A program made the translations under genes and the position numbers. A DNA stretch of 3,513 nt, taken from assembly GCF_003334335.1 (NCBI RefSeq), contig NZ_QOWQ01000083.1; one strand, 5' to 3'. The notes beneath the pieces are model-generated. The model did no database searches, had not been told where the DNA came from, and saw nothing but the letters and a program-made list of their open reading frames with translations. Positions 988 to 3,513 of the stretch are shown piece after piece; the stretch's first letter is position 1, and each line of letters opens with the position of its first letter. This DNA is from Escherichia coli. GTDB taxonomy: Bacteria > Pseudomonadota > Gammaproteobacteria > Enterobacterales > Enterobacteriaceae.

Positions 988-1025
988 ACAATAAAAAACT
1001 GTACACGATCAACAGTTTTTTATTG
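988..1025. promoter_or_regulatory. Operator-like inverted repeat in the divergent intergenic region (O site 1): CAATAAAAAACTGT-N9-ACAGTTTTTTTATTG
   Basis: Left half-site 988..1001 and right half-site 1011..1025 are reverse complements apart from one extra T, with a 9-bp spacer. The region 954..1062 must contain the promoters of the cro-like and repressor genes. Candidate -10 for the leftward promoter is TATAGT (reverse complement of 971..976). Candidate -10 TAAAAT at 1051..1056 would make the repressor mRNA nearly leaderless, as for lambda cI from PRM. Confidence 0.6.
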
Positions 1026-1062
1026 TGATGCTTTTAACAGTATTTACCTGTAAAATTGAATA

Positions 1063-1464
1063 ATGATGAACGCCCTAGAAGTATCTATGTACAGAATCAG
1101 CAAGCTTCTTCAGGAAACTGGATGGAGCCAGGCTGAGCTTGCCCGTAGAATTGGTGTGACACAACAAACTGTTCAACAATGGGTCAGCGGTAAGGCTACA
1201 CCTAAAGCCTCAAGTTTGGATAAACTGGTTGAGGTTACAGGGCATCCATTGCATTGGTTTTTATTGCCTCCTGAAGAGGGGGAGCAAATTTTCACCCCTG
1301 ACACGATGAAAATTGGTCCTCGTCAACGCGAACTGCTCCAGGCTTTTAGTGCGTTTCCAGAGGAAGACCAAGAAAAAATGCTTCAAGAAATCAAAGACAA
1401 GAAAAAATCAATGGAAGAAACCATTGCCCGGTGGTTGGCGGCACAAAAAAGCCGCCGGGCGTGA
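1063..1464 (+). CDS. paaR2: HTH-XRE family transcriptional repressor (CI-like); regulator of the three-component PaaR-PaaA-ParE toxin-antitoxin module
   Basis: 133-aa ORF with a classic XRE HTH (SQAELARRIGVTQQTVQQWVSG) in the N-terminal half and a Lys/Glu-rich helical tail. It is divergent from the cro-like gene and immediately upstream of the antitoxin-toxin pair. The paralog assignment (paaR2 versus paaR1) is from memory and unverified. Confidence 0.75.
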   Translation: MMNALEVSMYRISKLLQETGWSQAELARRIGVTQQTVQQWVSGKATPKASSLDKLVEVTGHPLHWFLLPPEEGEQIFTPDTMKIGPRQRELLQAFSAFPEEDQEKMLQEIKDKKKSMEETIARWLAAQKSRRA

Positions 1465-2023: not shown

Positions 2024-2067
2024 ACAATTAAAAACTGTTGACACAAAACAGTTTTTAATTGTAGATT
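2024..2067 (+). promoter_or_regulatory. Second copy of the operator inverted repeat (O site 2) overlapping a strong rightward promoter
   Basis: CAATTAAAAACTGT (2025..2038) and ACAGTTTTTAATTG (2048..2061) are perfect reverse complements with a 9-bp spacer, extendable to 15-bp arms at 2024..2062. Consensus -35 TTGACA (2038..2043) is built from the left half-site plus spacer, and -10 TAGATT (2062..2067) follows an 18-bp spacer. The half-site is the same as at 988..1025 apart from single-base differences. Confidence 0.65.
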
Positions 2068-2246: not shown

Positions 2247-2399
2247 ATGGATACTATCGAGCTTGGCAACAACGAATCTCTGGTATGTGGAGTATTCCCC
2301 AACCTGGACGGCACGTTTACCGCGATGACGTATACCAGAAGCAAAACGTTTAAAACGGAAGCTGGCGCGCGTCGCTGGTTAGCAAGAAACTCTGACTGA
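2247..2399 (+). CDS. Small prophage protein, YdfA/YdaF-like (DUF1391-type); start uncertain, ORF is open from 2160
   Basis: GAGG Shine-Dalgarno lies 5 nt upstream of ATG 2247, giving 50 aa (MDTIELGNNESLV...RRWLARNSD). This size class matches the ~51-aa YdfA/YdaF proteins that follow the repressor gene in Qin/Rac prophages (from memory). The upstream in-frame ATGs at 2160 and 2166 lie within a possible secondary promoter (TGAACA 2161..2166, TATATA 2185..2190). Confidence 0.55.
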   Translation: MDTIELGNNESLVCGVFPNLDGTFTAMTYTRSKTFKTEAGARRWLARNSD

Positions 2400-2497: not shown

Positions 2498-2944
2498 CTA
2501 ACCACAAAGGAATCGCATCAATTTGGATTTTGCAGACAGTTTCTCTTGTTGTTCTACGGAGATTCCTATTTTGATCTGGGTTTTTAAGATTGCGATATCT
2601 TTAAGCGACGACCAAATATTATCATCTGTTTTTTCCAGGAGCTTTAACTGCATTTTCAATTCCGAATCGGAATATTTTTCTGCATCATCATAAAGCTGCA
2701 GATATTCTGCGGATTTTCTCATTGCGTTACCTGACTTTTGTCCGAATCCGTAAATCGTTTGAACGGTTGCTATCACAACAATGAGAACTCCAGAAACTTC
2801 AGGAATAAATCCACCAATGACAGATGAACCGAGGATAATACTCACCACTGAGAAAAGTTTATCGAGACGACCAGTCGCTACAGAGAATAGTTGTTCAAGA
2901 AAATAATCATATAAAACCCTGTCAAGAATATCATCCCGGTCCAT
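2498..2944 (-). CDS. Hypothetical small inner-membrane protein: N-terminal amphipathic segment, two predicted transmembrane helices, charged helical C-terminal tail
   Basis: 148-aa ORF with AGGTGA Shine-Dalgarno 6 nt upstream of ATG 2944..2942. Hydrophobic stretches LFSVVSIILGSSVIGGFI and GVLIVVIATVQTIYGF are separated by the short loop PEVS, then a Lys/Glu/Asp-rich tail follows. The gene is convergent with the YdfA-like ORF and visibly AT-richer than flanking genes. No homolog recognised from memory. Confidence 0.7.
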   Translation of the reverse strand: MDRDDILDRVLYDYFLEQLFSVATGRLDKLFSVVSIILGSSVIGGFIPEVSGVLIVVIATVQTIYGFGQKSGNAMRKSAEYLQLYDDAEKYSDSELKMQLKLLEKTDDNIWSSLKDIAILKTQIKIGISVEQQEKLSAKSKLMRFLCG

Positions 2945-3192: not shown

Positions 3193-3407
3193 CGTGGTTA
3201 AAAGCAGGCACACAACACGAAAGCGCACGGCGAGATTCCTTTGCATATAAGGCTTGTCGTTAAATTTCTTCGACCGTGCACTTCCGGTTGTGGCAGTCCG
3301 CGAAATGGCGCGGCGGTAAGTATGGCTGGGGCTTCCTCCATTGCTCCAGAAAATGCACCGGGTCGTCAGGTTGACCATACGCTTAAGTGACAGCCCCGCC
3401 ACAATAC

Positions 3408-3465
3408 CCATGTGTAGTATTTGGTGGCATCAGTTCTACTCCGTGACTGCTCTGCCACCCTTTTT
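3408..3465 (+). ncRNA. dicF: DicF-like prophage small RNA (cell-division-inhibitor sRNA family), 3' end defined by its intrinsic terminator
   Basis: TTTGGTGGCATCAGTTCTACTCCGTGACTGCTCTGCCACCCTTTTT is near-identical to my recollection of E. coli DicF (..TTTGGCGGTATCAGTTTTACTCCGTGACTGCTCTGCCGCCCTTTTT). The terminal stem differs by one compensatory change per arm (GGTGG/CCACC versus GGCGG/CCGCC). The 5' end is approximate because DicF is processed from a longer transcript, and the 5' ~15 nt do not match my memory of DicF. Confidence 0.55.
3423..3465 (+). terminator. Rho-independent terminator (3' hairpin of the DicF-like RNA)
   Basis: GGTGGCA (3423..3429) pairs with TGCCACC (3453..3459), with internal CAG/CTG pairing, followed by C then TTTTT (3461..3465). 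Orientation is + only: on the - strand the T-run would precede the stem. Confidence 0.6.
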
Positions 3466-3513
3466 AAAGTGAATTTTGTGATGCGGTGAATGCGGCTATG
3501 CGCACGCGGAACA

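Follow-up and report, generated by a model that had tools for sequence, protein, structure and literature searches.

An unannotated DicF allele with a replaced 5′ arm in a lambdoid prophage immunity region of Escherichia coli

DicF is a textbook prophage sRNA. Towards the end of a 3,513-nt stretch of Escherichia coli DNA, called hereafter the window, positions 3409–3465 hold a genuine member of the DicF family in which the seed arm has been replaced. The allele is unannotated, and its seed replacement is notable. It is not a private mutation, but represents a circulating minority allele family, called hereafter “window-type”. We consider it likely that the 3409–3465 segment is a functional DicF allele, in which pairing with ftsZ is kept while the arm that contacts xylR and the RNase E site are replaced.

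The DicF hairpin and its 5′ arm

A covariance-model scan (cmscan, 4,227 Rfam families) gave a single match in the whole window, to DicF (RF00039). It places the dicF gene at 3409..3460 on the + strand, spans the full-length model (1–52 of 52) and scores 62.0 bits, for a gathering score of 48 (E 1.9e-12), which is far above the chance level. The match is followed by a U5 tail (TTTTT, 3461..3465, + strand), the same as in K-12, which is the expected 3′ end for intrinsic termination. An earlier note, made from the letters of the window, had placed a DicF-like sRNA at 3408–3465 and proposed such a scan as a check; its coordinates were right. For comparison, K-12 DicF scores 76.7 bits, and the window-type alleles 58–62 bits.

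K-12 DicF (NC_000913.3, 1649382–1649434, UUUCUGGUGACGUUUGGCGGUAUCAGUUUUACUCCGUGACUGCUCUGCCGCCC) was taken as the reference, in a register that sets K-12 nt n against window position 3407+n. In this fixed register, 37 of the 41 positions between nt 13 and nt 53 are identical, in agreement with the earlier statement that the 3′ two-thirds nearly match K-12. The four core differences are C18U (3425), U21C (3428), U29C (3436) and G50A (3457). RNAfold predicts a terminator/Hfq-type hairpin at 3423..3459 (+ strand), with an outer stem (3423–3429 with 3453–3459), an inner stem (3431–3435 with 3445–3449) and a loop that bears the conserved ftsZ/pykA-pairing sequence. The structure is the same in K-12, and the predicted energies are −15.8 kcal/mol for the window versus −15.9 kcal/mol for K-12.

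Three of the four differences fall in the stem and preserve its pairs, as had been noticed at the outset. The C18:G50 pair of K-12 (3425 with 3457) has become U:A, and the U21:G47 pair has become C:G by the change at 3428; the remaining difference, U to C at nt 29 (3436), lies in the loop. Among the matches listed, which comprise 19 distinct alleles, standard pairs were found in 228 of 228 stem cells. One stem pair shows a two-sided change (4 alleles), with U:G intermediates in 2 of the 19 alleles, and all the remaining stem polymorphisms are switches between wobble and Watson-Crick pairs. In two window-type loci, GGUGG is paired with CCGCC, which corresponds to a U:G intermediate at the pair that is C:G in K-12 and U:A in the window. 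The earlier note had taken the stem for the signature of a structurally constrained RNA. The complete pairing sustains this in part, but the change amounts to about one evolutionary event, so that it fits structural constraint while providing, by itself, modest covariation statistics.

The 5′ end differs. In the first 12 nt, only 2 of 12 positions match K-12, and alignment to K-12 delimits a divergent patch with the variant 5′ arm CACAAUACCCAUGUGUAGUAUUU at about 3400..3422 (+ strand). When the flanks are included in the alignment, 14 nt of K-12, TCTGTTATCAATTT, are absent between positions 3408 and 3409. These 14 nt sit just upstream of the K-12 5′ end and overlap it, and they hold the RNase E site that generates this end. 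The suspicion that the 5′ end was not that of K-12 was thus well founded. The flanks, about 45 nt upstream and about 50 nt downstream, are 90–95% identical to K-12, and the arm divergence is therefore a localised patch (about 3400–3419) and not general drift. The patch is sharp, about 20–35 nt, within a block of about 200 nt that is otherwise 90–95% conserved. This block is common to both allele types and comprises an upstream hairpin, the arm, DicF and about 70 nt downstream, with divergence outside of it. Therefore, the window-type arm is not an artefact of a recombination junction, but moves with the dicF cassette. In a conservation profile, the arm was not more conserved than its surroundings.

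Among 2.9 million viral contigs, the arm pattern matched dicF loci alone, the same 39 that are described below. A source of the arm, or a perfect target for it, elsewhere in phage DNA was accordingly discarded.

The model score, the two-part 3′ hairpin with its U-run, the core complementary to the ftsZ ribosome binding site and the location in the operon were all found as in RF00039. Two traits that go with this family in K-12 were not found, namely the K-12-type 5′ arm UUUCUGGUGACGUUU and the RNase E 5′-end site AAU↓UUUC (the arrow marks the cut). The arm is not scored by the Rfam model, so that its absence bears on functional equivalence and not on membership. The K-12-type processing site is likewise not required by the model, yet it matters for functional equivalence.

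Target pairing and processing

Genetics of K-12 DicF has established that its 3′ part pairs with the ftsZ ribosome binding site and its 5′ end with xylR (PMC5069750), and manX pairs with the 3′ end of DicF (PMC5861419). Pairing energies were computed on K-12 target leaders for segment-wise duplexes, together with shuffles. They replaced a folding of full-length sRNA-mRNA duplexes, which over-extends and ignores intramolecular structure.

For xylR, the K-12 5′ arm with two stem nt gives −19.7 kcal/mol (13 bp, +8..+20), versus −6.3 kcal/mol for the window. With the arm alone, the values are −15.8 kcal/mol for K-12, which none of 300 shuffles equalled, versus −7.2 kcal/mol for the window (z about 0). 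Simple duplex energies of this kind discriminate poorly, the validated K-12 pairing with ftsZ itself having z = −0.8 versus shuffles. For ftsZ, the loop gives −18.8 kcal/mol in K-12 versus −17.5 kcal/mol in the window, or −20.0 kcal/mol with two more nt. The register of this pairing is the same in both alleles (−24..+1), and the U29C change costs one A-U pair. The differences are also small for pykA (loop, −22.3 for K-12 versus −21.4 kcal/mol for the window) and for manX (3′ site, −24.4 versus −23.9 kcal/mol). From these duplexes, the window allele probably keeps the ftsZ function and loses at least the known xylR target. The altered target set that had been suggested from the 5′ end is thereby computed for one validated target, xylR, with the ftsZ, pykA and manX contacts kept.

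A precedent is provided by the DicF3 mutant of Balasubramanian et al. (2016), which keeps ftsZ repression and filamentation, and loses the regulation of xylR and pykA as well as much of the toxicity (PMC5069750). Like the window allele, DicF3 has an altered 5′ arm and an intact 3′ part, and its phenotype is the one predicted for the window allele. In contrast, DicF3 is an engineered substitution in a K-12 RNA with a defined 5′ end, whereas the whole arm and the processing site have been replaced naturally in the window. Given that DicF3 does not regulate pykA, this target may need the arm too.

Two observations on arm pairing were made in passing. The variant arm CCAUGUGU (3407–3416) is complementary over 8 bp to ACACAUGG, at manX +25..+32, in the region of the SgrS site (PMC5861419) and adjoining the known DicF site. 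Such a match has a chance of about 0.03 per target, and four targets were tried; the pairing is weaker in the AUGCGU sub-allele (from −16.4 to −12.5 kcal/mol) and is not conserved among sub-alleles. As a target of the arm, manX +25..+32 was therefore not retained, and is kept as a remark. Secondly, K-12-type copies differ among themselves at nt 12 of the arm, where G, A or U is found (for instance in loci L001, L029 and L030). With A or U at this position, the predicted xylR duplex weakens from −19.7 to −13.9 kcal/mol, so that even copies of the K-12 type may differ in their control of xylR.

RNase E cleaves at the consensus RN↓WUU. In the 55 nt upstream of the K-12 stem, this motif is present at the mapped DicF 5′ end only. 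Upstream of the stem in the window, the sole motif is GU↓AUUU, at 3418/3419, and a cut at this position would leave a 4-nt arm. No such motif was found upstream of the stem in the GUAGUC sub-alleles. In K-12, DicF is cut from a ydfABC-dicF-dicB transcript; RNase E makes its 5′ end, its 3′ end results either from Rho-independent termination (53-nt form) or from RNase III (72-nt form), and the RNA is Hfq-dependent and acts in trans (PMC5069750). For the window allele, the analysis shows the membership in the DicF family, the structure, the local replacement, the spread among genomes, the synteny and the lost complementarity to xylR, whereas expression, 5′ end, Hfq dependence and actual regulation are what we infer. 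Its variant arm may be part of the mature RNA, trimmed off, or embedded in a longer species.

Prophage context and spread of the allele

The window is the immunity region of a lambdoid prophage. Two genes lie on the − strand, a cII-like/YdaT gene (272–697) and a cro-like gene (681–953). Divergent from the latter is a cI/DicA-like HTH repressor gene (1063..1464, + strand), which matches the NCBIfam DicA subfamily with E 4e-14, below the cut-off, as well as PHROG transcriptional regulators; its counterpart in locus L001 is annotated as an HTH protein. A 39-nt operator-like palindrome separates the two divergent genes (988..1026), and a second 39-nt palindromic operator-like site, 79% identical to it, is found at 2024–2062. 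Their core is the operator motif AAACTGT-N9-ACAGTTT, which has two copies in the window and was seen in 0 of 200 shuffles. The second palindrome overlaps the −35 box of a promoter-like sequence, TTGACA-18-TAGATT (2038–2067, + strand). Judged by its sequence, this composite site (2024..2067) is likely a repressor-controlled early-left promoter, predicted to drive ydfA through dicF (and dicB). No promoter-like site was found in the window directly upstream of dicF.

The repressor gene and the early-left promoter are separated by an inserted toxin-antitoxin pair of the RelB/RelE type (1492–1970; RelB NF050103, 96 bits; RelE/StbE, E 1.6e-5, just below the cut-off), after which comes a terminator-like hairpin (1987–2006).

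The first gene of the dicF operon is a ydfA-like gene (DUF1391; 2247..2399, + strand), identified by phrog_751 (E 1e-34) and by the annotation of loci L001 and L003. Its product is 88% identical to K-12 YdfA. Between ydfA and dicF, and antisense within this transcription unit, lies an open reading frame of 148 aa, orf148 (2498..2944, − strand). It matches phrog_6315 (E 1e-23) and is annotated as a hypothetical protein in L003; no match was found in NCBIfam. Among the matches listed, orf148 is upstream of 14 of 38 window-type loci versus 1 of 108 K-12-type loci.

A hairpin is predicted by folding just upstream of the arm (3360..3396, + strand). It is conserved in both allele types and is a candidate processing element. 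A compensatory change in this hairpin was considered and rejected: the window has a U.G wobble and a C.A mismatch, versus two U-A pairs in K-12. On the other side of dicF, the sequence up to the window end (3466..3513, + strand) is conserved, with 3 differences from K-12 in 48 nt, and has low diversity in both allele types. In K-12, the RNase III cut that yields the 72-nt form falls in the region downstream of dicF, ahead of dicB (PMC5069750). In L003, which matches the window at 100% over a 264-nt flank, dicB starts 188 nt past the dicF match. A dicB gene beyond the window end is thus expected, because loci with identical flanks have it.

The same order recurs in other window-type loci. ydfA was upstream in 33 of 38, and a DicB homologue was downstream in nearly all those with enough sequence, either at about +220 nt (22 loci) or, where an insert intervenes, at about +1,100 nt. 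The upstream contexts of window-type loci number at least four, among them Qin-like ones with YdfA/B/C 100% identical to those of K-12. The insert between dicF and dicB, about 870 nt long, is present in L081 (5046–5234) and in about 12 other window-type loci. It carries isrK (RF01394, 65.5 bits) and a C4 antisense RNA (RF01695, 77.9 bits), so that these loci have three Rfam sRNA families in a row within one early operon.

In complete E. coli genomes, the share of the window that is matched at a single place does not exceed 77%. One set of prophages, among them AR_0017 with its K-12-type dicF, matches the immunity region and RelBE; a second set, among them G1/2 (NZ_CP060083) with its RacR-type immunity, matches the part from orf148 to dicF. 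This makes the locus a mosaic of modules.

Scanning IMG/VR with the exact core yielded at least 120 dicF loci, and an arm-specific scan 39. With the window itself, the window-type loci are 40, and the K-12-type loci at least 114. K-12-type loci have the pattern ...TATCAATTTTCTGGTGAC[G/A/T]TTTGGCGGTATCAG...CTGCCGCCC, and window-type loci the pattern ...CACAATA[C/T]CCATG[T/C]GTAGT[A/C]TTTGGTGGCATCAGTTCTAC...CTGCC[A/G]CCC. Among the matches listed, the window-type share is about 7–9% of an unbiased sample. Its arm is polymorphic at two to three positions among the 40 loci, with three sub-alleles: GTAGTC (22 loci), GTAGTA (13 loci, the window's own) and ATGCGTAGTC (5 loci).

In 5,426 complete E. 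coli genomes, some dicF flank was detected in 4,563, the window-type family in 208 (about 4%) and the exact 49-nt allele in 23, including STEC of serotypes O91:H21, O113:H21, O22:H8 and O103. The 208 genomes belong to commensals, ExPEC-like and animal strains, and STEC other than O157. At least 13 complete genomes match the 264-nt dicF flank at 100% identity. None of the RefSeq records matched carries an annotation under the window-type match. About 90 distinct carriers were sampled; they came from humans, poultry, pigs, gulls and wastewater, and none of their records is labelled O157:H7. One genome, G1/2, has dicF flanks in four places, one of which is window-type.

The window-type allele was found in none of 50,697 sequenced phage records, and full-length flank matches in these phages are about 83% identical, consistent with K-12-type copies. 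A species-representative scan, with one genome per species, gave no evidence for the exact dicF core outside E. coli/Shigella prophages. Five core matches in non-enteric records were examined and set aside: four are without dicF-like flanks, and the remaining one, from a MAG labelled Proteobacteria (L124), is a dicF of the K-12 type.

Interpretation and biological meaning

The reading that we favour is the following. dicF would be transcribed as part of the repressor-controlled early-left operon of a lambdoid prophage, from the operator/promoter at 2024–2067 through ydfA, dicF and dicB. As in K-12, transcription would end at the dicF hairpin and its U5 tail. The product would be an Hfq-type sRNA with a 5′ end made by endonucleolytic processing. 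Its loop and 3′ side are nearly identical to those of K-12, so that pairing with the ftsZ ribosome binding site, and hence the division block, should persist; the contacts with pykA and manX should persist as well. In K-12, the 5′ arm is single-stranded, pairs with xylR and adds to the toxicity; in the window it has been replaced as a patch, and the K-12 RNase E site is missing. Because of the replaced arm, the allele is predicted not to regulate xylR. A DicF3-like behaviour would be expected, with filamentation and no effects that depend on the arm, barring separate targets of the new arm.

With the DicF of the K-12 Qin prophage, this allele shares the RF00039 match, the two-part hairpin with U5, the ftsZ/pykA/manX pairing sequence, the ydfA...dicF...dicB order, a DicA/cI-type repressor and the conserved flanks of about 200 nt. 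It differs by the arm (2 of 12 positions matched), the absence of the 14 nt with the RNase E site, the loss of xylR complementarity, the pairs 18:50 (U:A) and 21:47 (C:G), the loop change U29C, and the antisense orf148, which replaces ydfB and ydfC. A broader parallel is the OmrA/OmrB pair of sRNA paralogues, which have one module in common and another that is divergent. The dicF alleles similarly combine a conserved structural/Hfq module and pairing region with a divergent region that could change the target range. They differ from OmrA/OmrB in being on mobile prophages and not in the core genome, and in that the functional consequence is predicted. Within the DicF reviews and papers examined, a set to which the primary EHEC reports do not belong, no dicF allele with a different 5′ arm is described.

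The mature 5′ end is what decides among a retargeted seed, an arm-less DicF and a neutral patch. That the replaced arm acts as a second seed selected for different mRNAs, so that distinct paralogues, present together in one cell, widen the DicF regulon, is a possibility that we hold tentatively. It would account for a sharp patch in a conserved block, for the persistence of the allele in several mosaic contexts and 208 genomes, and for the further dicF copies of carrier genomes such as G1/2; moreover, the K-12 arm is a validated seed (PMC5069750), and the new arm has an 8-bp complement in manX. However, that complement is of the frequency given above for four targets tried and weakens in the AUGCGU sub-allele, and the arm is both polymorphic among the 40 loci and no more conserved than its surroundings. 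The more general proposal, that DicF evolves by swapping of seed modules, with at least two prophage types that have a common ftsZ-silencing hairpin, unrelated arms and processing signals, and targets proper to each arm, is one that we put forward with similar reserve. We think it rather unlikely that the mature RNA starts elsewhere, which the missing K-12 RNase E site brings to mind, and that the allele is a pure ftsZ/manX/pykA regulator. Such an RNA would start either at 3419, as AUUU plus the hairpin, or further upstream and include the conserved hairpin, with the arm irrelevant or embedded. The 14-nt deletion that removes the K-12 site speaks for it, together with the placement of the cleavage motif solely at the mapped 5′ end in K-12 and solely at 3418/3419 in the window. 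Yet the motif is degenerate, and the commoner GUAGUC sub-alleles, which are without it, would need a different route although their arm is otherwise the same.

The hairpin and U5 might form a regulatory terminator between ydfA and dicB, an attenuator of the early operon that is read through by antitermination, with the RNA as a by-product devoid of function in trans. Its position inside the operon, upstream of dicB, and the pair-preserving changes of its stem would suit this role. But, among the matches listed, 20 nt of loop and 3′-side sequence are (nearly) invariant across alleles, which a terminator does not need and pairing with ftsZ, pykA and manX does, and K-12 DicF has been proven to act in trans and to depend on Hfq (PMC5069750); we regard a mere terminator as improbable. 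That dicF is a decaying, non-functional remnant in a cryptic prophage seems very unlikely: the lower Rfam score than K-12 (62 versus 76.7 bits), the lost processing site and the missing RefSeq annotation point that way, but the stem changes preserve pairing, the hairpin energy is unchanged, the core is intact, and the family is present in 208 genomes and several recombinant contexts, with a DicB homologue downstream in nearly all loci with enough sequence. The earlier note had also proposed one of the known divergent dicF copies of EHEC prophages. EHEC O157:H7 is cited as having multiple dicF copies (Melson and Kendall 2019, as reported in PMC7873438), and Sakai and 86-24 carry four (PMC7873438, PMC11774850). 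These copies are prophage-borne, with more than one per genome; carriers of the window-type allele likewise have several dicF loci, and the exact allele does occur in the non-O157 STEC listed above. If the allele were one of the four, the arm there would be CCATGYGTAGTM and not TTTCTGGTGAC. The facts run the other way: the family extends to 208 of 5,426 genomes, none of the roughly 90 sampled carriers is labelled O157:H7, and the one published distribution survey was confined to dicF sequences more than 99% identical to K-12 (PMC5069750, Fig. 9 legend). An already described O157:H7 copy is thus a most improbable identity, and the earlier suggestion is not supported.

The pairing regions of DicF are separable, with cell division controlled via ftsZ, and metabolism and toxicity via the 5′ arm, and a natural family, carried by about 4% of complete E. 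coli genomes, retains the former and replaces the latter. If the arm is trimmed or neutral, the finding is that of an ordinary variant of a known sRNA; if the arm is a working second seed, its value rises. Should the seed swap be true, the window-type arm would have its own host or phage targets, and a lysogen carrying both types would have two DicF regulons that differ in part. The copies are unannotated, and surveys based on near-identity would miss them, so that statements on DicF copy number and regulon in pathogens and commensals may be incomplete. The window-type family amounts to a natural experiment, which bears on the DicF functions that prophages actually require and on the diversification of sRNA seeds carried by mobile elements.
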